This document shows, piece after piece, positions 18,280 through 56,012 of a stretch of DNA of 64,000 bases. The DNA comes from Promethearchaeota archaeon (GTDB taxonomy: Archaea; Asgardarchaeota; Lokiarchaeia; Sigyniarchaeales; SOKP01): positions 1 through 64,000 of the forward strand of contig JBHLOC010000011.1 of the NCBI GenBank assembly GCA_048940925.1, in the 5' to 3' direction. The position numbers were made by a program, and so were the translations under genes. Below the pieces are notes generated by a model that saw only the letters and a list, made by a program, of their open reading frames with translations, did no database searches and was not told the DNA's origin. Position 1 is the first letter of the stretch. Every line of letters starts with the position of its first letter.

Positions 18280-18555
18280 ATGAGTTCTGGAAAATTAGAT
18301 AAGGATTCTCAAGAAGTTAGGGTAAATCATCACAAAATTGTATTAGAAAGAAGTATAAATATATCCCAGATTGCTATTCCTTTTTCTAAAATGTCTAAGT
18401 CTTATAAACCAATTGATATTTATTCTGGTAGTGAAAAAATCCCCTTCAAGGAAAGAGATCCAAAATATAAAATGATCTTAAAGCAAGAGTTTACTAATAC
18501 CTTAAAAGATGAATTTAAGGTATATAAATCAGTCATAAAATTTCCTACACTTTAA
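18280..18555 (+). CDS. Small hypothetical protein (paralog of 25800-26024)
   Basis: GGAGTGA RBS; shares ISxxxIPFS...DIYxGxExIxFKExD...ILxxEF with the 25800 ORF. Confidence 0.75.
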   Translation: MSSGKLDKDSQEVRVNHHKIVLERSINISQIAIPFSKMSKSYKPIDIYSGSEKIPFKERDPKYKMILKQEFTNTLKDEFKVYKSVIKFPTL

Positions 18556-18578
18556 TATAAAGTTTTAAAAGGCTCTAG

Positions 18579-19073
18579 TTAAATCTCAAGAATATAATCT
18601 ATTTGACGAAACTCCAAATCTTGACTATTATATCTGCAAGTTTCTTTAAATCCACATGAATCATACATTTTTTGTGCGAGAGAAAAGAATGGATGTTCCC
18701 CAGTGGTAACCTTTACTTTTTTCACACCTAATTCTTTAAATATACTAATTATTTTTAGGATTTGAGCCTTCCCAAAACCATTTCCCCTATATTCAGGTAA
18801 AATGCAATTATGACCAACAATTCCCAATTCAGGTCCTTGACGAAGATCATAAGACCCAAAACCAATAATCTTTTCATTATACATTGTTATAAAACCAGAA
18901 GCACCTATTGTTTTGGGAAACTGAAAAATTTTCTTATCATAAATTTTCCATTCTTGTTGCCATTTACTTGCTAAATCTGGCATTTCTGCGGTTAATTCCT
19001 CATAACTTCTCTTTAAAAGTGAATAAATCAAGCCTTCTTTGTATGCTGTAAATTCTTTAAACGCAAGAACCAT
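18579..19073 (-). CDS. GNAT family N-acetyltransferase
   Basis: ILPEYRGNGFGK, AQKMYDSCGF. Confidence 0.88.
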   Translation of the reverse strand: MVLAFKEFTAYKEGLIYSLLKRSYEELTAEMPDLASKWQQEWKIYDKKIFQFPKTIGASGFITMYNEKIIGFGSYDLRQGPELGIVGHNCILPEYRGNGFGKAQILKIISIFKELGVKKVKVTTGEHPFFSLAQKMYDSCGFKETCRYNSQDLEFRQIDYILEI

Positions 19074-19457
19074 TATACTCTTAAGATCATGTATTTGTAG
19101 ATTCTAAAGAAGTATTATTAATCATTTTCTATTGCTTTTTTACATTACGATCTTTTACGGTTTTTTGCTTCATATATCAATTTTAGATGTTTTAAAACAA
19201 GAGTTTATCTAAATCTTAACTGAAAAAATTAAATAACATTAACATTTCTTCATTACCTCGAGCCCAATCTGAATGAATTTCAAAATAATAATTCTATAAT
19301 TTAAATATTACAGTATAAGAAAATAGAAAAGTCAAATTGACAAAAATAGAATTTATTTTATTTACTTATTATGTGTAATATTTTTAAAAGAAGTTAATAA
19401 TTAAATTATAAGGAAGAAATTCTTATAAGATAATAGTAAAAAAACCTAGGTTTTGAT

Positions 19458-20099
19458 ATGAATTTAAAAGAAATACTAATTACAGTTCCAGTTATAGGTA
19501 TTATTGTAGGAGGGTATTGTGCATTATTTACTTTTCTTCTGTTCACATTAAATAATCCAAATTTTTTTTTTACAATAAGTACCGGATTGATTTTAACAGT
19601 TGGTTCGATTTGTTTAATTATAGTTAGTAAAGGTATAAAGAAAAATCCTCCCTTGGTAGCCTCAGAAAGATCTGAAGTCGGAATCACTCCTCTTGATTGC
19701 TTTACGTGGGGACACCTAGCATTTGGTATCTTTTCATTTTTAGTTGAGTTATTCTTTATTTCATTTCTTGCATTCGTAGATGGAATTATTTTATGGTGGG
19801 GAGTTATGCAAGCAATCGTACTGATCGCTATAACATGGGATATTATTGAAAACACAGCTTTCATAGAATTTAAAATTAAATTTGAAGATCGAAGGGATAG
19901 TATTTTGAACATATTCAGTGATGTATTTTTTGTATCGCTTAGTGGATTCTTAATGATTATTGTATACTTAATAACACAAGAGAATTTTATAATTACCCTA
20001 ATAATCGGATTTATCGCTTTGGTTGCTTGTGGCATAATATTTAGCATAAGGTACCGAAAAGTAGTTCTCAAAAGAGAAGATTATATTAAAAGAAAATAG
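19458..20099 (+). CDS. Membrane protein (DUF2585-like motifs)
   Basis: About 6 TM; DCFTWGH, WDIIEN, DSILNIFSD. Confidence 0.65.
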   Translation: MNLKEILITVPVIGIIVGGYCALFTFLLFTLNNPNFFFTISTGLILTVGSICLIIVSKGIKKNPPLVASERSEVGITPLDCFTWGHLAFGIFSFLVELFFISFLAFVDGIILWWGVMQAIVLIAITWDIIENTAFIEFKIKFEDRRDSILNIFSDVFFVSLSGFLMIIVYLITQENFIITLIIGFIALVACGIIFSIRYRKVVLKREDYIKRK

Positions 20100-20126
20100 G
20101 AATTATAAGTTTTTTATACGGAGATC

Positions 20127-20456
20127 TAGAGTGTCTCATATAAAATTGTTTTAGAAAGAAATATAGATATATATATCTCAGATTGTCATTCCTTTTTCCA
20201 AAATGTTTAAGTCTTATAAATCAATTGATATTTATTTTGATGGTGGAAAAAATCCCGTTCAAGGAAAGAAATCCAGAATATAAAACGAAATTAAGGCAAG
20301 AATTTGATAATCTTATCTAAGAAGTGAATTTTCAATATTAATTTTGGGAAAAACTTCATATAAGAATTATAAGAAAATAGATGAATTCCCTTTAATTATA
20401 AATTAAATCTAATTAACGTGATTCACATATTTTCTGAAATTATGAGGAGTGATGAA
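20127..20456 (+). repeat. Degenerate copy of the 18280 gene 3' part, plus the promoter and first codons of the 24001 MFS gene
   Basis: aaaattgttttagaaagaa...ttcaaggaaagaaatccagaatataaaacg matches 18334-18500; gtgattcacatattttctgaaattatgaggagtgatgaa matches 24001-24039. Confidence 0.85.
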
Positions 20457-20635
20457 TCATGTAAATAACAGTAGTGACGTAGAGCCATCAATCTTCTGAT
20501 CTAAGATAATAATGAAAAGACTCAGGCATGATTACTAGAACGGTTGCGACCATTATGTAAAAAGGAATTGCTAAATAATATAAACTTAATAGCCTTAGGT
20601 AAATCTATATATATAAAAACGAGAATTTTGTAATT

Positions 20636-22189
20636 ATGGGAATTATAGTAAATACTCCTTTAGGAAAAATTGAAGGATTTCAAGAATCAAATCATCAATC
20701 ATTTTTGGGGATCCGTTACACTAAACCACCTGTGAATGAATTACGTTTTTCTGCACCTCTCCCAGTTGAAGCTTGGGACGGTATCTATGATGCTAGTCAT
20801 TTTCGTCAGAGTGCGCCTCAATATGATGGGGGTCAAGGAACTATTAAAGATACTTCTGAAGATTGTTTATACTTGAATGTTTTTACTCCTAAGGCTAATG
20901 ATGCTAAAAGGCCGGTAATGGTATGGATTCATGGCGGGGGATTTGTATTTGGATCAGGTGGTATGGGTTATGGTAAGGGTTATGGAAAAAAAATAGTACC
21001 AAGAGGTAATATTGTTCTGGTTACAATCAATTATCGATTAGGGGTATTTGGTTTTTTTAATTGGCCTGGTTTAACAAAAAATAACGGTTTGTTGGATCAA
21101 ATTTGTGCTCTTGAATGGGTTAGAGATAATATCCGATATTTCGGTGGAGATCATAATAATGTAACGATTTTTGGCCAATCTTCTGGTGGAAGGGCAGTTA
21201 CGTCATTAATGGCAATGCCTTCTGCTAAGGGATTATTCCACAAAGCAATCCCCCAAAGTGGTACAGCACATCCTTATGCATATGATGATGCACCAAGTAA
21301 GAAAGCTTCAGAAGACTTGTTTGATGTATTAGGAATTAAGATTGGGGATTTAGATTCATTACGAGAGGTAGATTGGACTGAATTGAATAAGGCTCAACAT
21401 GAAATTTTCGGTAAATTAAATCCAAAAGAACATCGAATTTTGTTTCCTTTTAGACCAATAATTGATGAGGAGACTATTCCAGTTTTACCTTTGGATGCCA
21501 TTCGGAATGGTTTCGCAAAAGATATTCCTTTACTTATTGGAAACACTTTGGATGAGAGGAAAGTCTATAATAGAGGATTAATCCGAGCAAACCAAATTGA
21601 AGTAATACATAAAAGACACGAAAAAATAGATGAGGCTAGTCTTTTAAGATTTACTAATAAATATATGAAATTCTACGGTAAAACAGAAGACGATGCAAAA
21701 ACATTAATTGAGACTTACAAAAAAGCTAGAAAGGGTAAATTGCCAATAGAACCCTATGAGATTGGGTATACTATCAACACTGATGAGGCATATCGAATAC
21801 CAATCATCCGAATTGCTGAAGCACAATACCAAAATCAACAAAATACTTATTGTTACCTATTTGGATTTGAATCACCTCTACATAAGGATTTACTCGGAGC
21901 ATGCCATACAATTGATTTACCGTTTATTTTCGGAACTTATGACCATTCAAACCCGAATACAGAAGTAATGGTTGGACGTGATAATATAGAGGAACTTGAA
22001 ACATTTTCAAATTTAGTCATGGATGCATGGATTTCTTTTGCCAAAAATGGAGACCCAAATCACCCAAGGCTTCCCAAATGGCCAAAATACGAACTGAATA
22101 ACCGTGCTACAATGATACTCAAACCAAATCCAGAAATTGTCAATGCACCAATGGACGAGGAACGCTCTGCATGGGAAAATATACTTTGA
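20636..22189 (+). CDS. Carboxylesterase type B (para-nitrobenzyl esterase-like)
   Basis: SEDCLYLN, WIHGGGF, NYRLG, FGQSSG, GACH. Confidence 0.95.
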   Translation: MGIIVNTPLGKIEGFQESNHQSFLGIRYTKPPVNELRFSAPLPVEAWDGIYDASHFRQSAPQYDGGQGTIKDTSEDCLYLNVFTPKANDAKRPVMVWIHGGGFVFGSGGMGYGKGYGKKIVPRGNIVLVTINYRLGVFGFFNWPGLTKNNGLLDQICALEWVRDNIRYFGGDHNNVTIFGQSSGGRAVTSLMAMPSAKGLFHKAIPQSGTAHPYAYDDAPSKKASEDLFDVLGIKIGDLDSLREVDWTELNKAQHEIFGKLNPKEHRILFPFRPIIDEETIPVLPLDAIRNGFAKDIPLLIGNTLDERKVYNRGLIRANQIEVIHKRHEKIDEASLLRFTNKYMKFYGKTEDDAKTLIETYKKARKGKLPIEPYEIGYTINTDEAYRIPIIRIAEAQYQNQQNTYCYLFGFESPLHKDLLGACHTIDLPFIFGTYDHSNPNTEVMVGRDNIEELETFSNLVMDAWISFAKNGDPNHPRLPKWPKYELNNRATMILKPNPEIVNAPMDEERSAWENIL

Positions 22190-22227
22190 ATTAAAATCTG
22201 TTTTTTACAGCAAACATACTTGAGATT

Positions 22228-23688
22228 ATGGAGGAAAAGAAGACAAAAGAAAACCGAATAGCTGAGTTAATTAAAACTGTGAGGAAAGATCCTCATTTAG
22301 CTTCATCTCAGTTGGATTTTCCGTCTATTACTGAACCATTAGCTAAATACATTTCAGAAAGCCAATTTACTACAATCCCAGATGATATACTCGAACTTGC
22401 TAAACGTCATATTTTAGATACTTTGGTCTCAATGGTGGTTAGTACACAGTTAAAACCTTCTCGTCTTGCTCGCCAATTTGCCATATTTAATAGTGGAAAA
22501 GCTGATACAGCACATTTACTTACTACAAGTCAAACCACCACCTTATTGGATGCTATTTTTGCAAATGCAGTAACAGCTCATGCTTCAGAAATAAATGATT
22601 TTTGCCCTTCCGCTTTCGTGCAACCTGGTCCTCCAATTATATCTACTGTATTATCTATTGGAGAGACTATAGAAGCATCTGGGCAAGAAATACTCAAAGC
22701 AGTTGTTATTGGTTATGAAATTGCTTGTAGGCTACCAAAAGCTTTGGGTACGATGAACCTACGTACAGCGGGATTATCATCCCATGGTGTCGGACCTACA
22801 TTTGGTGCTGCAGCTGCAGCTGCTTCACTTTTAAAATTACCAAAAAGGTCAATTGGATATGTTTTAGCCTATTGTGTTCAACAAGCATCAGGTTCCTTTA
22901 ATTGGCTTCGCGATGAAGAACATATCGAAAAAGCTTTCCTTTTTGCTGGAATGCCTGCGAGAAATGGAGCATTTGCAGCTTTGATGGTTCATAACGGATT
23001 TACAGGTGTAAAAGATCCTTTTAAGGGAACACCAAACTGGTTGCTAAGCTCCATATTTATTGGAATTGATTCGGATCTTGATTTAAATAAGTTAATCCAT
23101 AATTTAGGAGTAGATTACGAGATGCCTTTAGTAGGTTACAAACGATATCCTGTAGGGGGTCCACTCCAAGCCAGCATTGAGGGATTAATAGAATTAATAA
23201 AAAAGATAGACCGAACATCAATTGTTAAAATTGAAATAAAGATGCCTGGAAATACAAGAGTTTTTTCTGAAGCGGTAATGCCAGCATTAAATTTACGATA
23301 TTTGGCAGCTGTTATTTTAGAAGATGGTGACCTATCCTTTAATATGGCACAATCTCATGAACGTATGTCCACTGAAACTATTAGAGAAAAAATGGATTAT
23401 GTTACCTTAATCCATGATCCCAATCAAGAAAAAGAGCCCCGTATAGAATCAGCACTAGTAAAAGTGATACTAAAAAATGGCGAACATCATGAGATTTTCA
23501 TTGAACACGTCCTTGGATTCCCTGAACGACCTATGAATCACCAAGATGTTGAAAATAAAGCTAAAAGCTTAATTACACCTATATTAGGTCACTCAAAAGC
23601 AAATAAATTAATTGAAACAATATGGAACCTTGAATCCTTACCAAATATCCAATCAATTATTCCGTTATTAATTCCACCAGATAATTAA
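22228..23688 (+). CDS. MmgE/PrpD family protein
   Basis: AKRHILDT, AHASEINDF, GYEIACRL, KRYPVG, GFPERPM. Confidence 0.9.
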   Translation: MEEKKTKENRIAELIKTVRKDPHLASSQLDFPSITEPLAKYISESQFTTIPDDILELAKRHILDTLVSMVVSTQLKPSRLARQFAIFNSGKADTAHLLTTSQTTTLLDAIFANAVTAHASEINDFCPSAFVQPGPPIISTVLSIGETIEASGQEILKAVVIGYEIACRLPKALGTMNLRTAGLSSHGVGPTFGAAAAAASLLKLPKRSIGYVLAYCVQQASGSFNWLRDEEHIEKAFLFAGMPARNGAFAALMVHNGFTGVKDPFKGTPNWLLSSIFIGIDSDLDLNKLIHNLGVDYEMPLVGYKRYPVGGPLQASIEGLIELIKKIDRTSIVKIEIKMPGNTRVFSEAVMPALNLRYLAAVILEDGDLSFNMAQSHERMSTETIREKMDYVTLIHDPNQEKEPRIESALVKVILKNGEHHEIFIEHVLGFPERPMNHQDVENKAKSLITPILGHSKANKLIETIWNLESLPNIQSIIPLLIPPDN

Positions 23689-23724
23689 TCATCCAAATAA
23701 ATATTTAGTTACAATTTTTGATAA

Positions 23725-23800
23725 CCCTTCAAGGAAAGAGATCCAGAATATAAAACGATTTTAAGACAGGAATTTGCTAGTTATATCAAAGAAGAAAATT
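23725..23800 (+). repeat. Third degenerate copy of the 18280 gene 3' end
   Basis: cccttcaaggaaagagatccagaatataaaacgattttaagacaggaatttgct matches 18442-18495 and 20255-20308. Confidence 0.85.
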
Positions 23801-24000
23801 TAATTCTCCAATTTCATCCAAAATATAGGAATAATGAGTTTAAGAATCTATTTAATTTTTTAGAGATTCACACTATTATAATTTGCAACTTATTGGGGGA
23901 AAAAATATCACTTAATTGTAGATTTGGGTTAAAATGCGTTACATAAAATTTATAAGAACATGGATGATATCCCATTATTTATAAATTAACTCTAATTTGA

Positions 24001-25386
24001 GTGATTCACATGACTTCTGAAATTATGAGGAGTGATGAAGTAGAATTTGCAACGTCAACTTCTAGACGAGATGTATTTTTCTGGGCTATGTATGATTTAG
24101 CAAACACTATTTATTCAATGATTATAGTCAGTTTAATTATTAATCGTTATATACTAGTGATTGGTCAGGTAGAGAATGGATTGGAATATGGTGAAGTCAG
24201 CTTTCTTTTTGGTTTGGTTAGTTTCATTATGCAAGTTGGAATCGCAATTTGTGTTCCTATTTTAGGAGCATTAAGTGATACTGTTGGAAAGCGTAAACCG
24301 TTTGTAATTAGTTTAACTGGTGTTATTCTTCTTTTTGCAAGCCTGCTTGGCTTTTTCCATGATCTTACAACGGTATTACTGTTATATGTAATTGCAAATG
24401 TTGCTTATCAATTTAGTCTTGTTTTTTATGACGCGATGCTTCCATTCATAGCCAAAAAGGAAGATATTGGAAAAGTTGCTGGATTCGGGGTTGCATGGGG
24501 ATACTTGGGAACTATTCTCTCTCTAGCTATTATGTATCCATTAATATTATTACTAGGTGATACAGTATCGACTCCACCTACACCAGAGTACGGATTTGCA
24601 GGATACTGGTTTACATTTGTTATACCTATGGTTCTTTTTTTGATTTGTGCTATTCCATTTCTTTATGTTCACGAAAAGCAAAAAATAGGTAAGCGACCAT
24701 CTATAGGGAAGTTAATTAAAAATACTTTTAAACAGATAGGAGGTACATTTAAGGATATTAGAAAGCATAGATCAATGGTTATCTTTATTATTGGTTACTT
24801 TTTTGTTGCAGACATTGCTAATGTTATAGTTCTCTATATGACACCAATAGTAACTGATGGTTTAATTATAGCAGGGGGATCAACCTTATTTGCCATCCTT
24901 TTTATAATAATCTCTACTATTTCAGCAGTAGCTTTTACCTATTTTGTAGGTAAATTTGGTGAAAAATATGGTGCAAAAAAAACGTTTTACCTTGTAGGCG
25001 CTTTATGGGGAATTGCTTTAAGTATAGGGATAATATTAGTATTCACAACGCAATCTATAGAGATTGGTGGAAATCTTCCTTTTATATTAAGTCTTTTAAT
25101 GGGTATTGTGGCAGGACCTGCTCTCGGAGGAACTTGGACAGCACAACGAATTATGGTCTTTGAACTCGCTCCCAAAGAAAAATTTGGAGAATTTTTTGGT
25201 TTTTCTAAATTAAGTGGAAAATTTTCTTCTGCACTTGGTCCATTTGTTTGGGGCTCTGTTATGTTAACTTATGATATAATCGGTAAAGTTGCATATGGTT
25301 GGGCTATGATATCTGTCGGTATTATATTGGGAATAGGAATATTGATTATTTCATTTGTAAAAGGAAATCAATCTGAAAATAATTAA
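24001..25386 (+). CDS. MFS transporter (UMF1/ATG22-like)
   Basis: WAMYDLAN, GALSDTVGKRK, VFYDAMLP, GEFFGF; 12 TM. Confidence 0.9.
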   Translation: MIHMTSEIMRSDEVEFATSTSRRDVFFWAMYDLANTIYSMIIVSLIINRYILVIGQVENGLEYGEVSFLFGLVSFIMQVGIAICVPILGALSDTVGKRKPFVISLTGVILLFASLLGFFHDLTTVLLLYVIANVAYQFSLVFYDAMLPFIAKKEDIGKVAGFGVAWGYLGTILSLAIMYPLILLLGDTVSTPPTPEYGFAGYWFTFVIPMVLFLICAIPFLYVHEKQKIGKRPSIGKLIKNTFKQIGGTFKDIRKHRSMVIFIIGYFFVADIANVIVLYMTPIVTDGLIIAGGSTLFAILFIIISTISAVAFTYFVGKFGEKYGAKKTFYLVGALWGIALSIGIILVFTTQSIEIGGNLPFILSLLMGIVAGPALGGTWTAQRIMVFELAPKEKFGEFFGFSKLSGKFSSALGPFVWGSVMLTYDIIGKVAYGWAMISVGIILGIGILIISFVKGNQSENN

Positions 25387-27913: not shown

Positions 27914-28663
27914 TTAAAGTGCCTTTCCTTGTTCTGCCACTGCGTTTATAGCTTTTTGAATTTCTTCAGGATTTCCAAGATAATAATGTTTTATTGGTTT
28001 TAAGTCATCATCTAATTCATATATTAAAGGAATTCCCGTCGGAATATTTAATTTTAGAATCTCCTCATCAGAAATATTATCCAGATATTTAACAAGAGCT
28101 CGTAAACTGTTACCATGAGCAGAAATCAAGACTTTTTTATCAAATTTGATTGTAGGTGCTATTGTATCATGCCAATAAGGTAATACTCTGTTGACCGTAT
28201 CTTTTAAACATTCAGTCAAAGGAATTTGATCAGCAGTTAACTCTGCATATTTTCTTTCATTACCAGGATATCGAGGATCTGTTGTTTTAAGAGGAGGAGG
28301 TGGGACATCATAACTTCTTCTCCAAATCAACACTTGTTCTTCACCCATTTCAGCGGCCATTTTTGCTTTGTAAAATCCTTGTAAGGCTCCATAATGTCGT
28401 TCATTCAATCTCCATGACCGATGAACTGGAATCCACATTAAATCCATCTCTTCTAACACAATCCACAGAGTTCTTATACCTCTTTTAAGTACTGATGTAA
28501 ATGCAATATCAAATGAATATCCACCATCTTTTAATAATCTAGCTGCTTCTTTCGCTTCTTGAATCCCTTTTTCCGAAAGATCTACGTCAGTCCAACCTGT
28601 AAACCGATTTTCTTTATTCCAAATACTTTCCCCATGTCTTAAAAATACAATTTTATACATCAT
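27914..28663 (-). CDS. gpmA: 2,3-bisphosphoglycerate-dependent phosphoglycerate mutase
   Basis: [52 protein letters not shown]. Confidence 0.97.
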
Positions 28664-28780
28664 ATATCAGCTTCTTGACTTATAATAATTGTAATATTAG
28701 AATGTTTAAATTTTAATAAATATCTCTTATTTTTTAAATATATAGATTGTTCAATGATTCTTTTTTTAGACTTAAAAAGT
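28574..28780 (+). repeat. Direct repeat, left copy (gpmA 5' end and upstream region)
   Basis: 28574-28650 identical to 35234-35310 (77 bp); next 40 bp have 6 mismatches; weaker similarity beyond. Confidence 0.95.
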
Positions 28781-28938: not shown

Positions 28939-31104
28939 ATGGCTTATGTGAGTTTAGATGATGAAAATTTAGAAGTAAAAAAGGGTAAATTGGATCTAAG
29001 TTCGAGAAACATTAAGGATATAACTGAAATTAAGGGTTTAAAGAATTTTTCAGATATACAAGTTTTGTATTTTAATAAAAATGAAATTAGGGAGATTAAA
29101 GGTCTAGAAACACTCAAGAATTTACGAATCTTAGACTTAAGCGATAATTTAATTAATGAGATTAAAGGTCTAAAATTTCTTAGTAAGTTACAGTGGTTAG
29201 TTCTTAGAAATAATAAAATAACCGAGATTAAAGAATTGAATTATCTTAGAAATTTAAAAATATTAAATCTACAACATAATGAAATTACTGAGATTAATGG
29301 ATTAGAAACACTTACTAACTTACAAGAATTAATACTTAATGATAATAAAATTACGGAAATTAAAGGATTAGAATATTCAACCAATTTACAAGAGTTGGAC
29401 ATTATAAATAATCAAATTACCACAATTAAGGGATTAGATCTTCTTACTAATTTAGAACGATTATCACTTAATAAGAATCAAATTTCTAAAATTATTGGTT
29501 TGGAAAACCTAATAAACTTAAGGGAGTTGAGTCTTGCTGGAAATCAAATCACTCATATTAATAATTTAGAAAGCCTCACGAAATTAAGAGTACTAAATCT
29601 TAGTAACAACCAAATTATAGATATTAAAGGATTAGAATCCTTAGTTGGTTTAAAATTTTTAAATCTTAAAGATAACCAAATACCTGCAAAATTAATTAAA
29701 AATTTAGGTGGATTGAATCAAAAAGGTATCGCAAATAATCCACAAACATTTGTTGAATATTGTCAAAAGAGATTGGAAGCGAAAAGAGAAGAGAAGGAAA
29801 GAAAACGGGCTAATGCTATTCATTACATTAAAAAATTACCGAAGATATATAGTGAAATTACATTTGAAAAAATTATGTCAAAAACAGGGATTAATTTGGA
29901 GGAATTAGAGCACCTAATTGAGACAATGATTTTTAACAAAGAAATTAATGCCCAAATTAGTGGTACTAAATTAATTTTCAAAAGAAAGGAAGAAAAACCA
30001 TTTTCTAGATCTGAAAAAGTAACACAAATCCCTTTAACCATCAGTGAATATAGAAGTAGAAACATTGAAATATCAAGAGGTGGAGATTGGAAAATTGAAG
30101 GAAACCAGAGCGTATTTCATTATAAAGTAAAAATAAAAAATTTATCTCAGTACATTATTTCAGATATCCAAATAATTTTTGGTGATGTACCACAGGGATT
30201 AGAATTAAGAACAGAGAAATTAATTGAATTTTCAAAATTAAGCCCATATAATGTTGTTTCACCTACATACAAGTTGTATGCTACTGATAACTGTGTTGGA
30301 AGTGAAATAAAGGGCATTGTTAATTATAGTGATCATTTTGGAAAAACATATACAGTTAAGATTGAGCCATTTGAAATTCATTATGTGTGTAATTTACTTA
30401 TACCAAAGAGGATTTCTAGAGAGGAATTTGATAGAAAGATACAATTCATGCGAGGGAGAACAATGATAATTGATAGTAGCCTAAATCCAGATGAACTAAA
30501 AACCATTGTCAAAAAGAACATAGAAGAATGCAATTTTGCTTTACTTCAGGAAATTAGAGATGCCCAAAAGGAAGGATTTATGAGAATAGAAGGATTAGCG
30601 CAAGGTCTGTATGATAAACAAGATGTTGCTATATCAGTTGCTATGAGGCGATTAGAGGCGGGATCAGAGCTAAAAATCAAGACTTTAAGCGATGAATACG
30701 CAAAGACTACTGATCTTATGAGAGATATTAGTATTAAATTAGAGGATATTAAAAGTGATACTCAAAAAATTGAAGATATTATTTATTATATTGATGAATC
30801 AAAAATTAGAGAAACAATAGGTATAATTATTCAAAACCCAAAAGACTTAAAAAGAGTGATTTATAAAGTTATAAAAAATCCCGAATGGTCTGATGAAGAA
30901 AAAAATAAATGGGCAAAAATTGTAATGGAAACTCTTAATTATTATAAGGTATTTAAACCTCCACTATGGTTAAAATTCGTCCAAAAAATTACCAAAATTA
31001 CTTTAGGAGAATCTGCATCAAAAGCAATTACGAATGGAGTTGAACAATTAGTAAATTGGATAAATGGAAAAGTTGTTAAAAAAAAAATGAAAGAAATGAA
31101 TTGA
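28939..31104 (+). CDS. SDS22-like leucine-rich-repeat protein with PCI-like winged helix and adaptin-appendage-like C-terminal region
   Basis: About 10 22-aa LxxLxLxxNxIxEIKGLE repeats; YSEITFEKIMSKTG...LIETMIFNKEINAQI; beta-sandwich followed by LLIPKRISREEF. Confidence 0.8.
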   Translation: MAYVSLDDENLEVKKGKLDLSSRNIKDITEIKGLKNFSDIQVLYFNKNEIREIKGLETLKNLRILDLSDNLINEIKGLKFLSKLQWLVLRNNKITEIKELNYLRNLKILNLQHNEITEINGLETLTNLQELILNDNKITEIKGLEYSTNLQELDIINNQITTIKGLDLLTNLERLSLNKNQISKIIGLENLINLRELSLAGNQITHINNLESLTKLRVLNLSNNQIIDIKGLESLVGLKFLNLKDNQIPAKLIKNLGGLNQKGIANNPQTFVEYCQKRLEAKREEKERKRANAIHYIKKLPKIYSEITFEKIMSKTGINLEELEHLIETMIFNKEINAQISGTKLIFKRKEEKPFSRSEKVTQIPLTISEYRSRNIEISRGGDWKIEGNQSVFHYKVKIKNLSQYIISDIQIIFGDVPQGLELRTEKLIEFSKLSPYNVVSPTYKLYATDNCVGSEIKGIVNYSDHFGKTYTVKIEPFEIHYVCNLLIPKRISREEFDRKIQFMRGRTMIIDSSLNPDELKTIVKKNIEECNFALLQEIRDAQKEGFMRIEGLAQGLYDKQDVAISVAMRRLEAGSELKIKTLSDEYAKTTDLMRDISIKLEDIKSDTQKIEDIIYYIDESKIRETIGIIIQNPKDLKRVIYKVIKNPEWSDEEKNKWAKIVMETLNYYKVFKPPLWLKFVQKITKITLGESASKAITNGVEQLVNWINGKVVKKKMKEMN

Positions 31105-31118
31105 TTTTTTAAAATCTA

Positions 31119-34796: not shown

Positions 34797-35233
34797 TTTC
34801 TTTACCCTTTATTTTTATAATTGAAACTAAAATGAGTTTAGATTGTTTTCAAAATTTCTGTTTAACACTATTGTATATTGTATAATATATAATTTTCATA
34901 TCATCATATATAATACTTTTTACATCATAGTCTAAAGTCTTTTAAAGTAGCCTATAAGATATAATATTCAAAACAAGGTCTCCTTAATTTTATTTAAAAA
35001 GCATGTTTCAAAATAAAGTTAAAACCAGTAGAATTAGCATCAAATGCAATTACAAATTAAGTTGAAACAGAAATAACTAAAAAAAAATCTAACGGATGAT
35101 GATATTGGTCTACATGAGATATTTTTACTACTTTCCTTATAATTTTAAAAAATACATATATATGAATCGATCCGCAGAAAAATTAGTACATATAAAAATC
35201 AAATTCAATGGGAAAGTTATTTAAAACACATTG

Positions 35234-35440
35234 CGAAAGATCTACGTCAGTCCAACCTGTAAACCGATTTTCTTTATTCCAAATACTTTCCCCATGTCTT
35301 AAAAATACAAGTTTAAACATTATATATCAATTTCTTGACTTATAATAATCGTTCTAGTAAAATACTTAAAAATTAATATTTATCTCTCTTAATTCTAATT
35401 TTTAGAAGAATTTAATGGTTTTCTTTTTGATCTTAAAATG
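35234..35440 (+). repeat. Direct repeat, right copy: orphan gpmA 5' fragment ([29 protein letters not shown] on the minus strand) plus upstream region
   Basis: Matches 28574-28780 at offset 6660. Confidence 0.95.
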
Positions 35441-35594
35441 TTATAAATGGGAACTGTTCCTTTGAAAGTTTTTGCTTGATAATTACTTTTCTTTTGAAAA
35501 CTTTAATTCGATAAGAAAGTTATTTAAAGCCATTAGAGAAATATTATTTACATTAATTAACTTTTCCAAAAATTTAAAAAAAAGAGGTTATATC

Positions 35595-36962: not shown

Positions 36963-36980
36963 TCATATATTTCTCTTTTT

Positions 36981-42952: not shown

Positions 42953-42972
42953 ATTTTTTATGAAAACTCGTA
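42919..42972 (+). repeat. Direct repeat, left copy (radical SAM gene 3' end)
   Basis: tgaatttcatcatggtggtttttcaaaaagt recurs at 44282. Confidence 0.75.
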
Positions 42973-43015: not shown

Positions 43016-44050
43016 TTAATCATTTACTTTAATAATTAATCGTGGCCAACCATTAAATCCATCATTTAATATTAAATCATTCTGTGGTTGTGTATTATTA
43101 TGAATATCAGTTGCTTTAGTGTAAAGAGAAAATGTCCCTGATACATTAAAAGTAATATTTATTTCCCAAAATACCCATACATGATCTTTATCAATTGATT
43201 TTACAATGGTTACTTGAGTCCAATCCAATCCCATATTAATTGTATACTCAATTTTTGAAATTCTTGTTCCGCCAAAACCAGCACCCCCTATTGTGAGTGG
43301 AATACCAACAGTAATATTTACATTATCGTTAGGAAAAAATATTGTTGAATCAACAGGCATAGGAGGGGATGTGTCCCAACCTCTATCGTCCCAATAATCC
43401 TCAAGTGGTCTATCTATGACTTCTATTTCTACTACCCATGCTGGTTGTTTTGCACCGTAATATCCTGGATTTACTATTCTGAGAGGGAAACCTTGATTAC
43501 GAGGTAAGATTTCTCCATTCATATATAAAGCACCTATGGTTCCATTATTTTTCAATTGTTCAAGTGTGTGAGAGACATAATATCCATCTGCCGCTTTATA
43601 CTTTACACCAGTCGCATTTTCCTTTAAACCAAGAGACTTTAAAAAATCGTATATTAGGAATCCTTTCCATACTGCAGTTGATAAAAGGGGTCCTTTAGCT
43701 GGATTACCAATACATTCAGTTGTGAGAGTTTGTTCAACTAAATCTAACGCTTGTAATTCAGTAAGATTAAACTTTTTTGGATTATCGATTTTACCCCATA
43801 CATTGAGAGTATATGTATTAGAATCAATATAAGGAGCAAATCCTATCCTTGTTATAAAATAATCTTTATTCTTTGTTATGAAATCTGGAAATCTATCATA
43901 ATCGTTTTCAGAAGGTTTTTTAGATGTTTTTTCAGATCCTAAAAATGTAATACTGATAGCTATGCTTGATACAATTAAGATAACAACCAAGGTTAAGATG
44001 AGTAATTGTTTTGTTCCTTTTGATAAAGAAAAACGAGTTTTTAGTTTCAA
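43016..44050 (-). CDS. Membrane-anchored sulfite-oxidase-family molybdopterin oxidoreductase
   Basis: N-terminal TM; TECIGN, AVWKG, AADGY, MNGEILPRNQGFPLR, PGYYGAK; C-terminal Ig-like dimerisation domain. Confidence 0.9.
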   Translation of the reverse strand: MKLKTRFSLSKGTKQLLILTLVVILIVSSIAISITFLGSEKTSKKPSENDYDRFPDFITKNKDYFITRIGFAPYIDSNTYTLNVWGKIDNPKKFNLTELQALDLVEQTLTTECIGNPAKGPLLSTAVWKGFLIYDFLKSLGLKENATGVKYKAADGYYVSHTLEQLKNNGTIGALYMNGEILPRNQGFPLRIVNPGYYGAKQPAWVVEIEVIDRPLEDYWDDRGWDTSPPMPVDSTIFFPNDNVNITVGIPLTIGGAGFGGTRISKIEYTINMGLDWTQVTIVKSIDKDHVWVFWEINITFNVSGTFSLYTKATDIHNNTQPQNDLILNDGFNGWPRLIIKVND

Positions 44051-44281: not shown

Positions 44282-44333
44282 TGAATTTTATCGTGGTGGT
44301 TTTTCAAAAAGTGAAATTCGTGATAAAAACGTA
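44282..44333 (+). repeat. Direct repeat, right copy of the radical SAM 3' end
   Basis: tgaattttatcgtggtggtttttcaaaaagt; 19-bp identical core with the 42919 copy. Confidence 0.75.
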
Positions 44334-51291: not shown

Positions 51292-51528
51292 TTGATAGAT
51301 TTTGAAAATATTAATAAAGATAAAGCTTTAAATCTAATGAAATTAGATTTTGAAGTCTTTCTAGCTGCATTAGTCAAAATGAAGATGGTAGATAACTTTG
51401 ATCATACACTCCCTAATGGATTGTCATCATTTGCTAAATTTTACTTTTCATATCACAAATTAATTTATAAAAATCAAGAGGATCCGCACAAAATTTATAC
51501 CGAATTTTTAAAGTGGCTAAATAGATAA
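51292..51528 (+). CDS. Small hypothetical protein
   Basis: 78 aa; its 3' half is conserved at protein level in a second copy at 55881. Confidence 0.7.
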   Translation: MIDFENINKDKALNLMKLDFEVFLAALVKMKMVDNFDHTLPNGLSSFAKFYFSYHKLIYKNQEDPHKIYTEFLKWLNR

Positions 51529-51833
51529 AATTAAATATATTATCAACTCTTGTTAAAAGATTATGTTTTATTAAAGGACTTAAGCATGAATCACGCTAAT
51601 TTATATAAAATTTTCTAATATTGAAATTCTCTTTTTTTTCAAGTTTTATTCGAGTTAATAATTTTAGATAAAACGTCGATTTCTAGTCTTTTTAAATAAA
51701 CAAATTCATTATATTCATAGAAATTGCCTGAATAGCCTGAATAATAAACAAATTCAATTAGAATGCATATAACATTCATGAGAGAAAGATTTATAATTTT
51801 TACGCATAATTATTATAAAAGTAAGAAAACTAC

Positions 51834-53252
51834 ATGTTAGTAATATATTATCAAAATATGAAAAATATGGTAGCTAAAACGTTAATTCATAGGACGGGGA
51901 CTAATAGCTTTATTTATATTATTGCGATTGTATCAGGGTTAAGTGGAATGTTATTTGGTTATGATACTGGTGTTATTTCTGGTGCTATTCTTTTTATTAA
52001 GCAAGAATTTTTTCTCTCATCATTTTTACAGGAATTAATTGTTAGTGCTGTATTAATTGGAGCAATAATTGGAGCATTTATAGGTGGATCGTTAGCTGAT
52101 CGTTATGGACGAAGAAAAATGATTATTGTTGCAGCAATTATATTTGCTGGGGGTGCTATTGGGACCTCATTAACACCAAATATAATTTTATTGATCATAG
52201 GGAGAATAATTGTAGGAATTGCTATAGGAATGGCATCTTTTATTGCTCCACTCTATATCTCTGAAATGTCTCCACCAAGGATTAGAGGATCATTAGTATC
52301 CTTAAATCAATTGTTTATTACCATAGGTATTGTTATATCTTACTTGGTTGATTATGCATTTACTCCTCTAAATGGTTGGCGTTATATGCTTGGTTTAGCA
52401 GCTATTCCTGCAACTATATTATTAATAGCCATGATCTTCATGCCAAACAGCCCACGATGGCTAATAAATTATGGAAATGTGGATAAAGCGCGTACTACAT
52501 TGATGAAGATCCGAAGGACTGATAATATCAATGATGAGCTCAATGAAATCGTGACCAGCTTAAATAAGCAAAAAGGAGGGAGGAAAGAATTGTTAAATCC
52601 TTTAATAAAACCTGCAATGATCGTGGGTATATCATTAGCTATTTTCCAACAAGTTACAGGAATTAACACCGTGATATATTATGCTCCAACTATTTTTGAA
52701 TTTGCGGGATTTCAATCTTCTGCGGCTGCTATCTTTGCGACAATTATAGTAGGAATAGTGAATGTAGGTTTTACTCTTGTTGCAATATTTTTGTTGGATC
52801 GTGTCGGACGGCGTAAATTATTGTTACTTGGTTTAGCTGGCATGAGTGGAATGCTCATAATGCTAGGGATAGTATTTGTTTTACCTAGTTTGTTAAATCA
52901 ATTGGGAACATTAGCCGCAATTAGCTTAATGGCGTATGTTGCCTTTTTTGCTATTGGCTTAGGACCAGTCTTTTGGTTATTAATATCCGAGATATATCCT
53001 CTAAAAGTGAGGGGTCTTGCAATGAGCATTGTAACAGAAGCAAATTGGGGATCTAACTTAATAATCGCTTTAACTTTTTTAACCTTAATTCAATTATTGG
53101 GACGTTCAGGTACGTTTTGGCTTTATGCTGCTGTAGGGATAATGGCATTAATCTTTACGTATATTTATGTTCCAGAAACTAAGGGAAGAACCTTAGAAGA
53201 AATTGAAGAACATTGGCGTGGAAGAAAACATCCACGAGAATTGGGGAGATGA
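51834..53252 (+). CDS. Sugar porter family MFS transporter (GalP/XylE-like)
   Basis: FGYDTGVISGA, DRYGRR, PLYISE, QQVTGINTVIYY, PETKGRTLEEI. Confidence 0.96.
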   Translation: MLVIYYQNMKNMVAKTLIHRTGTNSFIYIIAIVSGLSGMLFGYDTGVISGAILFIKQEFFLSSFLQELIVSAVLIGAIIGAFIGGSLADRYGRRKMIIVAAIIFAGGAIGTSLTPNIILLIIGRIIVGIAIGMASFIAPLYISEMSPPRIRGSLVSLNQLFITIGIVISYLVDYAFTPLNGWRYMLGLAAIPATILLIAMIFMPNSPRWLINYGNVDKARTTLMKIRRTDNINDELNEIVTSLNKQKGGRKELLNPLIKPAMIVGISLAIFQQVTGINTVIYYAPTIFEFAGFQSSAAAIFATIIVGIVNVGFTLVAIFLLDRVGRRKLLLLGLAGMSGMLIMLGIVFVLPSLLNQLGTLAAISLMAYVAFFAIGLGPVFWLLISEIYPLKVRGLAMSIVTEANWGSNLIIALTFLTLIQLLGRSGTFWLYAAVGIMALIFTYIYVPETKGRTLEEIEEHWRGRKHPRELGR

Positions 53253-53258
53253 TATTTT

Positions 53259-55676
53259 ATGAACAAAAAAAAGGTTTATGACGGTGAAGCACCAGGACAT
53301 CCGGGAAAAGATCCAAGTTGGACATCGAGCGCAAAAGATGGAGTAGGAACATCTATATCTCGTGGAAGCCTAGTTTGGTTTACATTATCTGGTGGTATAA
53401 TTAATGAGGTATATTATCCCCGAATTGATCAAGCAAATATTCGGGATTTTCAATTTCTTATTACCAATGGTACTGATCTTGTCGAAGAAGAAAAAATTGA
53501 TTGTGATCATAAGATTTCCATGTTAGAAGAAGGAGCTCCGGCGTATAAAATCACAAATACATCGCATCAAAAAAGATATGCGATAGAAAAAATAATTTTA
53601 ACTGATCCTAGAAGGGATGTACTATTGTTAAAAGTAAAGTTCACTCCCCTAAAAGGACAATTAGATGATTACCGTCTTTATACAATTTTGAATCCTCATA
53701 TCAAGAACTTTGGCTATGGAAACGATAGCTGGGTAGGTGATTATAAAGGTATTCCCATGCTTTTTGCTCAGAGAGAGGATATTGTACTAGCCTTAGCATG
53801 TTCTACACCTTTTATCAACATGAGTTGTGGATATTATGGTATAAGTGATGGTTGGCAAGACATTAATAAAAATCGTACCTTAACGCAATATTATTCCCAC
53901 GCATCAAATGGAAATGTTGTTATAACGGGGGAAGTTGATTTAAAAGCAAGTAATGGAAACTTTATTTTAGTTGTCGCATTTGGAAATAATCCTGCAGAAG
54001 CTGGACAACTTGCCCGTACTGCTTTGTTTAATGACATCGATCAAGTAATTAAGGATTATATGTCTTATTGGCTAGAATTTCAGCAAAAATGTAAAAACTT
54101 AGATCAAGTTGGAGAAAAAGGATTCAATATTTACAGGTTAAGTACGATAGTCTTGAAAACTCACATGGATAAACGCTTTTCGGATGGCTCAATAGCGAGT
54201 TTATCAATTCCTTGGGGATTTGCCAAAGGTGATGATGATTTAGGGGGTTATCATTTAGTATGGCCAAGGGATCTTGTTGAAACTGCAGGTGGACTTCTTG
54301 CAGTGGGAGCCAATTTAGAAGCTCTCCAAATCATGATTTATTTAATGACTACTCAAAATGAAGACGGACACTGGCCTCAAAACATGTGGTTAGATGGTAC
54401 CGAATATTGGCCTGGTATACAAATGGATGAAACTGCTTTTCCAATATTACTTGCAAATGCTCTAAAAGAGAATGGACTCCTTCAAAAGATCAATATTTGG
54501 CCTACTATAAAGAAAGCTGTGAGTTTCTTAGCATGTGATGGGCCTATTTCTCAAGAAGATCGATGGGAAGAAGATCCAGGTTATTCTCCCTTCACTTTAG
54601 CAGTAGAAATTGCTGCTCTTCTTATTGCATCAGAATTTGCTCGAGGTGCGGGGGAACCTCAAATTGCTAAATATTTAACAGAACTAGCAGATTATTGGAA
54701 TTCCAATATCGAAAATTGGACTTACATTAGGGACTCAGAACTAGCGAAGAAACTAAATATTGAAGGTTATTATGTTCGAATAGGTCCCCCTGATCTTCCT
54801 GATGCTGCTTCACCTAAGAATGGGTATGTCCCTATTAAGAACAGACCTCCTAATGAAAGTAAAGCTCCTTTTGAATATATTGTAAGTCCTGATGCCTTAG
54901 CCTTAGTACGATTTGGATTACGAGCTGCTGATGACCCAAAGATCGTTAATACAGTGAAAGTTATTGATTCTATGCTAAAAATAAAAACTTCAACAGGTCC
55001 TGTATGGCATCGTTATAATAGAGACGGATACGGAGAACATTTAAATGGAGATGCTTTTGACGGTACTGGAATTGGTAGGGGTTGGCCACTACTAACTGGT
55101 GAACGTGCTCATTATGAACTAGAGAAAGGAAATATTGAAAGAGCAAAAAAACTTTTAAAGGTGATGGAAGCACAGACCGGTCCGGGAGGACTTATTCCTG
55201 AACAAGTTTGGGATGCCAAAGATATTCCTCAAAAAAATCTGTTTAATGGACATCCTTCAGGTTCTGCTATGCCCTTGGTTTGGGCGCATTCTGAATATGT
55301 AAAATTAGTGCGTTCATTAGAAGATAGCAAAATTTTTGATATGCCCCTTCAAACTAAACAGAGATATGTTAAAGAAGACCATCCATCAAATCTAAAAATA
55401 TGGAAATTTAATCATAAATGTTCTAAAATAAATACAGGAAAGATTTTGAGAATTGAATTGAGAGCAGAAGCGAATATTCGATGGTCTATTGATGATTGGA
55501 ATACATTTCAAGAGTCTGAAACAATTGATACAGGATTAGGTATCTATTATGTAGATTTACCTACAAAAGATTTAGTTAAACCAAAAAAATTGAGTTTTAC
55601 AATTTATTGGTTAGCTCAAGATAAGTGGGAAGGTTCTAATTACGAAATTCAATTAATTTCTGAGAGCTTTGACTAA
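53259..55676 (+). CDS. Glucoamylase/glucodextranase, GH15
   Basis: APGHPG...W...KDGVGT, ASLSIPWG, GGYHLVWPRD, QMDE, DRWEE, PEQVWD, SAMPLVWAHSEY. Confidence 0.95.
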   Translation: MNKKKVYDGEAPGHPGKDPSWTSSAKDGVGTSISRGSLVWFTLSGGIINEVYYPRIDQANIRDFQFLITNGTDLVEEEKIDCDHKISMLEEGAPAYKITNTSHQKRYAIEKIILTDPRRDVLLLKVKFTPLKGQLDDYRLYTILNPHIKNFGYGNDSWVGDYKGIPMLFAQREDIVLALACSTPFINMSCGYYGISDGWQDINKNRTLTQYYSHASNGNVVITGEVDLKASNGNFILVVAFGNNPAEAGQLARTALFNDIDQVIKDYMSYWLEFQQKCKNLDQVGEKGFNIYRLSTIVLKTHMDKRFSDGSIASLSIPWGFAKGDDDLGGYHLVWPRDLVETAGGLLAVGANLEALQIMIYLMTTQNEDGHWPQNMWLDGTEYWPGIQMDETAFPILLANALKENGLLQKINIWPTIKKAVSFLACDGPISQEDRWEEDPGYSPFTLAVEIAALLIASEFARGAGEPQIAKYLTELADYWNSNIENWTYIRDSELAKKLNIEGYYVRIGPPDLPDAASPKNGYVPIKNRPPNESKAPFEYIVSPDALALVRFGLRAADDPKIVNTVKVIDSMLKIKTSTGPVWHRYNRDGYGEHLNGDAFDGTGIGRGWPLLTGERAHYELEKGNIERAKKLLKVMEAQTGPGGLIPEQVWDAKDIPQKNLFNGHPSGSAMPLVWAHSEYVKLVRSLEDSKIFDMPLQTKQRYVKEDHPSNLKIWKFNHKCSKINTGKILRIELRAEANIRWSIDDWNTFQESETIDTGLGIYYVDLPTKDLVKPKKLSFTIYWLAQDKWEGSNYEIQLISESFD

Positions 55677-55880
55677 CTAATAGTTCAATTAAACCATGAA
55701 TTATGAGAAATAAGCCTAAAATTCAAATTTTCTATTCTTATGAAAATTTATAATTTCTTTTTTTGAATTATTAATATCGTGTCTTCTTTTATGAGATTTA
55801 ACACCATTTGAGTTTTATTATTTCAACTCTGGATAGATATCATGTATTTTTGACTGAAAATTTCGCATATTTTTGATCTG

Positions 55881-56012
55881 GATGATTTTGATCATACATA
55901 TCCTAAAGGAATGTCATCATTTGTTAAATTTTATTATTCACATCATGAAATAGTTTATCAAAATCTAGAAGATCCACAAAAAATCTATACTCTATTTTTG
56001 AAAATTTGATAG
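55881..56012 (+). repeat. Diverged orphan copy of the 51292 gene 3' half
   Basis: DDFDHTYPKGMSSFVKFYYSHHEIVYQNLEDPQKIYTLFLK vs DNFDHTLPNGLSSFAKFYFSYHKLIYKNQEDPHKIYTEFLK (51391-51520). Confidence 0.88.

Follow-up and report, generated by a model that had tools for sequence, protein, structure and literature searches.

Introduction

Campbell-type integration (insertion-duplication, or 'ends-in' recombination) is known mainly from laboratory vectors and plasmids. Homology-facilitated illegitimate recombination (HFIR) has been described in naturally transformable bacteria, according to the studies cited in PMC2884548 (de Vries and Wackernagel 2002; Prudhomme et al. 2002; Meier and Wackernagel 2003), a source that discusses small variable segments without mobile-element genes and homology-assisted illegitimate recombination in bacteria. 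An HFIR origin has also been proposed for the orphan 3' ends found at Rhs, contact-dependent inhibition (CDI) and type VI secretion system (T6SS) effector-immunity loci (Kirchberger et al. 2017, PMC5361080). Here, we describe a comparable footprint in a 64-kb stretch of DNA (hereafter the window), the first 64 kb of contig C55 in the Promethearchaeota assembly GCA_048940925.1 (G000; 4.8 Mb, 90 contigs, 30% GC), in which five accessory gene cassettes each lie between a gene end and a diverged direct copy of that end.

In Asgard archaea, mobile elements have been described as integrase- or tRNA-linked (PMC8813620), and the scars analysed here are not described there. Frequent gene transfer within the group, traced at the level of gene trees, and unusually many duplications have been reported (PMC13247210); the main text of that study does not contain the word 'recombination' and does not describe such scars.

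Results

Accessory cassettes are bracketed by copies of neighbouring gene ends

When we compared the window with itself, all five cassettes proved to be flanked by direct repeats of 49-315 bp that are 80-86% identical. At each of the five sites the repeat is a copy of the end of a flanking gene; below, we call the gene the resident and its detached end the orphan. The five repeat families are mutually unrelated in sequence. An earlier reading of the window from its letters alone (the sequence-only reading) had reported the same five bracketed cassettes, with repeats that are direct, unrelated to one another and derived from a flanking gene, and in all of this it was borne out. It had also noted the absence of any integrase, transposase, terminal inverted repeat or tRNA, in agreement with our domain scans, tRNA searches and inverted-repeat searches: the 64-kb window contains no tRNA gene, no cargo open reading frame (ORF) of at least 100 amino acids in the window contains a recombinase domain by Pfam, and no convincing terminal inverted repeats were found, the inverted matches at cassette ends being of a weak, AT-rich chance kind. 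Gene identities in the window rest on Pfam domain assignments, which agree with the gene names given in the sequence-only reading.

The pattern extends throughout the genome, which is a metagenome-assembled genome (MAG). We compared the whole assembly with itself by BLAST, clustered the intra-contig matches and compared the numbers of direct and inverted ones. There were 464 direct and 39 inverted intra-contig matches. For short brackets, defined as repeat pairs of at most 450 bp with 0.6-15 kb between the copies, the clusters numbered 114 direct and about 9 inverted (binomial P 3e-24). Ninety of the 114 short direct pairs are not simple paralogue pairs, which in 4.8 Mb corresponds to about 19 scars per Mb. 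The genome-wide search for direct repeats that the sequence-only reading had called for thus returned about 90 brackets at a direct-to-inverted ratio of about 10:1. In the commonest class, the 3' end of a gene is matched by an orphan copy in non-coding DNA past the intervening genes, and among the bracketed gene termini 3' ends outnumber 5' ends. The median bracket has a repeat span of 152 bp, an identity of 80% and an insert of 2.6 kb. We call the 39-kb stretch picked out by the sequence-only reading a bracket hotspot because it holds five clusters, compared with an expectation of 0.69 based on the remaining genome (P 7.5e-4).

The density of brackets is not special to this genome. Two samples of its large contigs (400 and 380 kb) contained 4-7 brackets, 400 kb sampled from a congener with a 3.3-Mb genome (G006) contained 6-8, and 400 kb from G026, a 4.36-Mb single-contig genome of another family in the same order, contained 4-5. 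The proposal of a special link between the brackets and genome expansion in this lineage thus gains no support, since G006 and G026 show similar densities. As a control from outside the group, 250 kb of E. coli K-12 yielded just icd/icdC, copies of tRNA-Asn and a single further pair; direct and inverted matches stood at 4:4. That the density exceeds the level of other prokaryotes stays a weak claim because this control is small and icd/e14 was included on purpose.

Genome-wide, cargo and flanks do not differ in GC content (median difference -0.001, P 0.94), so that the GC-rich appearance of two cargoes, A2 and D, cannot be taken as a general sign of foreign DNA. Equal GC in cargo and flank fits donors from the same lineage.

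Orphan copies resemble ends of working genes

If a spare gene end had arisen in place and then decayed, half of the path separating it from the resident would be neutral, and pairwise dN/dS should be about (0.16+1)/2, that is, at least 0.55. The 39 resident-orphan pairs, pooled, give a dN/dS of 0.24, with mismatches distributed over the three codon positions as 267:207:502. The value is 0.23 for 31 gene-end pairs (bootstrap 95% 0.16-0.33) and 0.21 for the 20 strictest pairs (bootstrap 95% 0.12-0.34), in which the orphan lies within no ORF and its open frame does not run past the homology. For comparison, the last 50 codons of true orthologues in G000 and congeners, at similar divergence, give 0.15-0.16. 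The neutral share of the orphans' divergence path is thus estimated at 6-9%, against 50% under duplication in place, meaning that most orphans were part of working genes for nearly all of their divergence from the neighbouring resident.

We then searched three orphans in all 54 congeners (the comparison set comprises 54 or more congeneric genomes at species level). The orphan on contig C17 is closest to G122 (79%); its own neighbour, at 73%, ranks 14th beyond the orphan's own copy. The orphan on C79 matches G102 (85%) and the closest relative of G000, G018 (83%), better than its own neighbour (81%), and that neighbour is itself 90% identical to G018. The sequence-only reading had suspected that some orphans come from orthologues in related lineages. 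The pooled dN/dS of 0.21-0.24 and the two of three orphans that are nearer to other species support this, whereas sites B and C and some of the other pairs fit duplication or decay within the lineage equally well.

Two copies of a gene for a protein of about 670 amino acids occur in G000 at C17:4134-6161 and C57:76584-78596. They are 81-89% identical to the G007 orthologue, and both have orphan 3' fragments of their own downstream. The C17 copy is much closer to G007 (94% amino acid identity) than to G018, the sister species (84%), and may represent an allele gained by transfer or a second population in the MAG.

Empty sites and movement of cassettes between species

We searched for empty sites in regions around gpmA from 12 congeners, queried with the window proteins. 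Unoccupied counterparts exist in congeners for loci A-D, showing that the inserts are real gains. The genes gpmA and MFS_2 are adjacent, without cargo B, in G018, G007 and G001, and in G018 they diverge from a 119-bp spacer. The radical-SAM and DUF4184 genes adjoin each other without cargo C in G018 and G004, and the RHH gene, small ORF and MFS gene are adjacent in G005 and G013, where cargo A1 is absent. In G090, the 78-amino-acid ORF of site D lies 38 nt from the AsnC 3' end, an empty site for D.

The esterase-MmgE block of cargo A2 (approximately 20575-23700) recurs in six other Asgard genomes with 86-92% nucleotide identity, at different loci and with sharp ends: the homology begins 30-60 nt upstream of the start codon, thereby taking in a TATA box, and ends 3 nt past the stop codon. 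Core DNA flanking the block is about 78% identical where it is orthologous. In G002 the block again follows the small ORF, in the corresponding place, between flanking genes whose products are 73-79% identical. In the other genomes the flanks match other G000 contigs at 65-80% identity, and one equivalent slot in G000 (C76:6144-7398) holds a different small bracketed insert. In four other genomes we found no convincing direct repeats around the block; the bracket scar is thus not obligatory for this cassette.

A stretch that is 91% identical between the DZ2S.368 MAG (L043, 13107-14328) and G000 (C50:19254-20475) lies 1.5 kb from the esterase-MmgE cassette of that MAG, within surrounding DNA of 65-77% identity. 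Judged from this contrast in identity, it may be another shared cassette.

Site D retains a passenger gene end

Site D is the most telling of the window sites. Its repeats, 80% identical and gap-free, lie 4490 bp apart and bracket a sugar porter gene and a GH15 gene (Table 1). The bracket reported in the sequence-only reading stands; its 'small gene', by our count, is a rare accessory ORF present in 2-3 of 54 congeners. The porter-GH15 block is patchily distributed, with searches finding it in 5 of 40 congeners and in 14 of 120 members of the family, and is 75-87% identical at the nucleotide level to its counterparts in nine genomes of the family.

Between the GH15 gene and the orphan lies a decayed 3' remnant of an AsnC-type regulator gene. 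Searched with nhmmer and an AsnC 3'-end profile built without the G000 remnant, the remnant (55782-55838) scored E 8e-4, second to the resident AsnC gene, and the next match had an E of 0.64. In five congeners, GH15 is directly followed by a convergent AsnC gene, and the G000 remnant holds the same position relative to GH15. In G106, GH15 is followed by an AsnC 3' stub alone, and G005 has an additional stub that separates AsnC from GH15. Insertions recur at the AsnC 3' end within the genus, with arrays or orphans of it in G001, G005 and G106. In G001, four partial AsnC 3'-end copies in one orientation occupy 2.7 kb (L027, G001:C115:1000-20999, 559-3250), an array that points to several rounds of insertion there.

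The resulting order at site D is small ORF, sugar porter-GH15, AsnC stub, small-ORF stub, DUF420 and AsnC. A donor of the type small ORF-porter-GH15-AsnC could account for it: a fragment reaching from within the small ORF to within AsnC would close on itself and cross over once with a recipient of the type small ORF-DUF420-AsnC; the mirror case yields the same order. Read in this manner, the head-to-tail joint of the AsnC and small-ORF stubs (55838/55881) would favour a circular intermediate at this site. No donor with the 78-amino-acid ORF beside a sugar porter was found; the ORF occurs solely in G090 and G121, where it lies beside AsnC. In tests for passenger joints of this kind genome-wide, 9 of 171 reached z >=4, compared with 0 of 154 controls.

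Site A has been used repeatedly

The sequence-only reading had treated the two cassettes at site A separately. Both brackets stand, and they are better described as nested brackets in series at a single small ORF that follows an RHH gene. Repeat copy 1 is the 3' two-thirds of the 91-amino-acid ORF (18334-18516). Cargo A1, in which a membrane ORF of 213/221 amino acids (19406-20099) accompanies the GNAT gene, is enclosed by this segment and its 82% identical counterpart at 20142-20331. In copy 2, the small-ORF part carries a 1-nt frameshift and is followed by a copy of the region upstream of the MFS gene that includes the first 13 MFS codons, 11 of which match the MFS N-terminus (20418-20456). 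Cargo A2, which has its own TATA-box promoter, lies between copies 2 and 3, which correspond in the small-ORF part (20255-20331 and 23725-23801, 83%) and in the MFS upstream region with the 13 codons (20360-20456 and 23943-24039, 85%).

In G018 (L014, G018:C51:20001-40000, 1590-3238), a complete module of RHH gene and small ORF that belongs to another allelic type (35% amino acid identity) is followed by a truncated RHH gene of the G000 type (residues 64-141) and a frameshifted small-ORF copy, which has the same 1-nt insertion as copy 2 in G000. This arrangement is a module displacement at the same site, and site A is one site used repeatedly.

Directly downstream of the MFS/ATG22-like gene, at 25866-26021, lies a third, older fragment akin to the small ORF (48% amino acid identity), whose position is kept in most congeners. 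In all congeners the MFS gene sits between two diverged small-ORF copies. Because of the fragment retained downstream, the MFS/ATG22-like gene may itself be an ancient insert of the same kind.

Sites B and C

The two copies at site B, which comprise the gpmA 5' end and its upstream region, are 82% identical, and the orphan has 87% amino acid identity over gpmA residues 1-31. Either copy shares 84-85% identity with G018 or G102, against 82% between the two copies. The region is a two-way promoter, and each of its copies now points towards one cargo gene. Searches in relatives found no orphan gpmA 5' ends and no donor with the LRR and SBP-TIR genes beside gpmA; the sole full-length homologue of the pair is in G088, with 65% identity and at an unrelated locus. 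A 45-nt candidate passenger fragment abuts the orphan. The match is weak, its alignment score being reached in 1 of 300 shuffles; site B may resemble site D in having a passenger fragment left of the orphan. At sites C and A2, passenger searches gave alignment scores at shuffle level.

Cargo B is an unusual pair. One protein, of 1225 amino acids, joins an N-terminal SBP_bac_5 solute-binding domain to a C-terminal TIR domain; the other, an LRR protein of 721 amino acids, has an additional weak match to a PCI domain. From these domains, the pair could be a ligand-sensing TIR signalling or defence module. In the neighbouring MFS_2 ORF, the first 41 codons, which begin with TTG (35472-35594), align with G018 alone. 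The true MFS_2 start is probably at 35595 because the proteins of the other congeners align from the methionine at residue 42.

Site C has the shortest repeat, 49 nt with 86% identity at a distance of 1363 bp (E 2.5e-8 in the window), and gives no information on the origin of its orphan. Among congeners, the sulfite-oxidase-family gene occupies three slots, between CAAX and radical SAM, between radical SAM and DUF4184, and after EamA (L016, L023, L025, L030, L031). All three lie in one otherwise conserved neighbourhood, and in some species the gene is absent from it.

Table 1. Features of the four bracketed sites in the window (positions in the 64-kb window).
Site	Feature	Position	Strand	Content and basis
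A	RHH (CopG-type) gene	17839..18264	+	Pfam RHH_1; orthologues adjoin the small ORF in congeners
A	91-amino-acid small ORF, repeated insertion target	18280..18555	+	ORF listing, alignments
A	Cargo A1	18579..20099	mixed	GNAT acetyltransferase 18579-19073 (-); ORF 19406-20099, no family assigned
A	Repeat copy 2	20142..20456	+	Pseudo-copy of small-ORF 3' part joined to MFS upstream copy
A	Cargo A2	20575..23700	+	Carboxylesterase (COesterase) 20636-22189; MmgE/PrpD 22228-23688; Pfam
A	Repeat copy 3	23725..24039	+	Small-ORF 3' fragment, then native MFS upstream region and start
A	MFS/ATG22-like gene	24001-25386	+	Start lies within repeat copy 3
B	gpmA, resident gene	27914..28663	-	Histidine phosphatase superfamily; Pfam; 90% amino acid identity to G018
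B	Repeat copy 1	28571..28780		gpmA codons 1-31 and 117 nt upstream
B	Cargo B	28939..34796		LRR 28939-31104 (+), SBP_bac_5-TIR 31119-34796 (-), convergent; Pfam
B	Possible passenger fragment	35194..35238	+	Resembles MFS_2 5' region 35497-35541; abuts orphan gpmA
B	Repeat copy 2	35231..35441		Orphan gpmA codons 1-31 and upstream region, adjoining MFS_2
B	MFS_2 gene	35472-36962	+	Beside orphan gpmA fragment
C	Radical-SAM gene, resident	42137-42952	+	
C	Repeat copy 1	42919..42967	+	Last 11 radical-SAM codons and 15 nt
C	Cargo C	43016..44050	-	Molybdopterin oxidoreductase (sulfite-oxidase family); Pfam
C	Repeat copy 2	44282..44330	+	Orphan radical-SAM end, contiguous with native spacer before DUF4184
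C	DUF4184 gene	44373-45023		
D	78-amino-acid ORF	51292..51528	+	3' half 51391-51512 is repeat copy 1
D	Cargo D	51769..55756	+	Sugar porter 51834-53252; GH15 glucoamylase/glucodextranase 53259-55676; Pfam
D	Decayed AsnC-type regulator 3' remnant	55782..55838	-	Right end of cargo D
D	Repeat copy 2	55881..56002	+	Orphan 3' half of 78-amino-acid ORF, in frame, gap-free
D	DUF420 gene and resident AsnC/Lrp regulator	56094..57021		DUF420 56094-56522 (+); AsnC/Lrp 56554-57021 (-); Pfam

Mobility enzymes and other classes of element

The assembly encodes one tyrosine recombinase (Phage_integrase, C41:54893-55411) and one resolvase, both on contigs other than C55. TnpB is represented by two IS605-type OrfB genes, on C79 and C36 only, and no DDE_Tnp_1 transposase was found in the 4.8-Mb assembly. 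Mobile-element enzymes are few for a genome of this size, although a MAG can lose repeated elements. With a single tyrosine recombinase, dozens of unrelated targets without a shared core and one or two ordinary genes per insert, a site-specific enzyme is unlikely.

We considered several described classes of element, of which integron cassettes and aloposons were rejected. An integrase-borne island disagrees with the lack of a recombinase in the window cargo, of a common junction core and of any relation between the repeat families. Integron cassettes do not fit because there is no attC, the homology of the esterase-MmgE block ends 3 nt after the stop codon, this block has its own promoter, there is no palindrome at the ends and no integrase lies nearby. 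A transposon or casposon would not account for duplications that vary from 49 to 315 bp without terminal inverted repeats or a DDE_Tnp_1 gene (Cas1 was outside the searches). Finally, aloposons (PMC8813620) are excluded by the absence of a tRNA site, giant genes and an integrase.

Discussion

Probable integration anchored in shared gene ends

The brackets are probably the product of homology-anchored, additive integration of DNA from related species, either of the Campbell type or by HFIR. We infer the recombination route, the circular or linear form of the intermediate and the means of DNA transfer from cell to cell from the structure of the scars. The incoming DNA, 0.7-9 kb from a related and mostly congeneric archaeon, would carry the cargo together with part of a gene that the recipient also has. 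The first joint would form by homologous exchange inside the shared gene end, carried out by the general recombination machinery of the host. The second joint would be illegitimate: either the ends of the fragment would have been joined into a circle, which then underwent one Campbell-type crossover, or a linear fragment would have been attached to the chromosome by its free end (HFIR, or 'end displacement'), pushing the old gene end away. In both cases the resident gene would be left intact with the cargo beside it and a useless second copy of the gene end on the far side, and no element-encoded recombinase would take part. Selection would place the surviving scars at gene termini, because only shared segments that include the gene end leave the resident gene whole. 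On the linear route, the anchor could run far into the gene body, avoiding an inefficient crossover between short repeats.

A number of observations weigh against this explanation. Neither circles nor excision products nor polymorphic reads were seen. Long identical tracts are now missing from most pairs, such that a crossover confined to the 50-300 bp repeat would have had to join DNA of about 80% identity. On C40, C51 and C18, the pairs have a neutral appearance and contain stop codons. The C35 orphan has its closest match in its own neighbour (85%; best other species G124, 78%). In a mosaic test of four resident genes, the C7 gene alone switches affinity, from G018 in the body to G015 at the end, and the switch is non-significant. 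A donor arrangement with the cargo beside the anchor was found for D and A2 alone, and not for A1, B or C. At site B, the 93 coding nucleotides differ at 4 positions and the 117-nt upstream part at 32 (27%; Fisher P 5e-6), both copies carry G000 states that are lacking in G018, G007 and G001, and with G018 as the outgroup the upstream changes split 18:18. An old duplication within the lineage followed by conversion of the coding tract would fit site B as well as would a foreign allele in which a tract was converted at the crossover, and we regard the site as ambiguous. At site C, the resident end is near-identical to G018 and the orphan lacks a stop codon, so that this site looks like plain decay. 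As for the proposal in the sequence-only reading of Campbell-type integration of small circles, the homology-guided, additive gain from relatives and the joint at site D speak for it; a linear route leaves the same scar, and no circle was observed.

Other origins of the brackets

Several of these observations would be expected if the target had been duplicated in place, that is, if the cargo had been inserted by template switching or by fill-in of a staggered break, which copied 50-300 bp of target and left the spare to decay. Such a process would produce repeats of variable length without sequence specificity. It agrees with the lineage-specific coding states shared by the site B copies and their symmetrical divergence from G018, with the decayed look of the site C orphan, with the affinity of the C35 orphan for its own neighbour and with the few pairs that have flat codon-position counts and stop codons. 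As a general explanation we consider it unlikely: the pooled dN/dS (0.21-0.24, upper bound 0.34) lies well below the expected minimum of 0.55, the orphans on C17 and C79 have nearer matches in other species than in their neighbours, and neither the AsnC passenger at site D nor the 96% identity of the site B coding part next to 27% divergence in the adjoining 117 nt is explained. The gene order at site D, interleaved as A, X, B', A', Y, B, is the classic outcome of tandem multigene duplication with reciprocal loss, which would leave gene-end stubs in a reshuffled local order. The three slots of the sulfite-oxidase gene in one conserved neighbourhood and the tandem duplications reported as frequent in Asgard genomes (PMC13247210) point the same way. 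This process makes no new genes, yet the empty sites of congeners lack the cargo altogether; its stubs should decay neutrally, contrary to the dN/dS values; and no sampled genome holds both site D cargoes together, as its ancestor would require. We therefore think it very unlikely as the source of the brackets.

An integrase that targets gene ends, since lost or acting from elsewhere, would make the cassettes decayed or trans-mobilised islands of the icd/e14 type, each of which brought a replacement end with it. The footprint equals that of icd/icdC down to the synonymous bias of the differences, 3' ends predominate over 5' ends, and gene ends are reused (the AsnC 3' end in G001, G005, G106 and G000; the small ORF at site A). 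Against these parallels stand the single tyrosine recombinase of the assembly, with none in the window cargo, the dozens of unrelated targets without a common core or tRNA targeting, and cassettes of just one or two genes whose ends fall at a promoter and a stop codon; such islands are in our view distinctly unlikely. An artefact of metagenome assembly, or chance similarity in AT-rich DNA, might be suspected in a MAG of 90 contigs with an estimated contamination of 8.4%, and site C rests on 49 nt. Copies that are 80-86% identical are not collapsed or duplicated reads, however, a chimeric join cannot make a duplication, and contig C55 contains no N. Independent assemblies of other species show the same scar, and with direct repeats outnumbering inverted ones by about 10:1 we give this explanation hardly any credence.

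Implications

With integration anchored in shared gene ends as the preferred explanation, the scars provide nucleotide-level evidence of many recent gains of one or two genes without a mobile-element enzyme, resembling recombination with related species at shared gene ends. If this is true, homologous recombination by the host is the main basis of gene flow in these slow-growing archaea of sediments, and orphan gene ends could serve as dated, directional markers of donor and recipient. A bolder extension, which we hold to be doubtful though conceivable, is that Lokiarchaeia-type Asgard archaea exchange cassettes in a recombinase-free, self-propagating manner: the repeats would let a cassette loop out as an address-tagged circle, and RadA would re-insert it at the orthologous gene end in a related cell. 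Such cassette exchange, if true, would be a main route of gene gain and of gene-order reshuffling among species.

Comparison with known systems

The sequence-only reading had raised the possibility of an undescribed gene-capture mechanism. This cannot be maintained, as insertion-duplication, HFIR, C-terminal displacement at Rhs/T6SS loci and icd/e14 all leave the same footprint. The footprint itself is of an ordinary, known kind. What is new is the setting and scale, about 19 scars per Mb in an almost recombinase-free Asgard genome, together with the pooled evidence, which indicates that the orphans are alleles from related lineages.

At icd of E. coli, the insertion of e14 or phage 21 takes place in the gene end, a replacement end keeps the gene whole, and a diverged direct orphan (icdC) stays behind. 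Passed through our pipeline, icd/icdC gave a repeat of 216 nt at 87% identity, with 12 mismatches in 165 positions of the icdC segment, 11 of them at third positions. The difference lies in the element: e14, a 15-kb prophage, encodes its own integrase and excisionase and uses a single fixed site, whereas the G000 inserts consist of one or two ordinary genes, contain no recombinase and occupy dozens of unrelated sites.

Rhs, CDI and T6SS loci resemble the brackets in that a module is anchored in a conserved part of a gene and the old 3' end is pushed downstream as an orphan, in that repeated rounds create arrays, as with the AsnC 3' ends of G001 and the small-ORF copies of site A, and in that the orphans resemble alleles of other strains. 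Those systems are confined to polymorphic toxin genes, and their orphan immunity genes are selected. In G000, by contrast, the anchors are housekeeping, regulatory and function-unassigned genes, the cargo is metabolic, transport or sensor genes, and the host is an archaeon.

Campbell-type integration likewise flanks an insert with direct repeats of the shared segment and needs no dedicated enzyme. Here, the integrating DNA would be circularised chromosomal fragments of other species, matched over 50-300 bp at about 80% identity. HFIR shares with the brackets one homologous anchor and one illegitimate joint, and it brings in foreign DNA without a mobile-element enzyme. In the experiments that described it, in Acinetobacter, Streptococcus and Pseudomonas, the recipient usually lost DNA, whereas in G000, an Asgard host, the recipient DNA is kept as the orphan.

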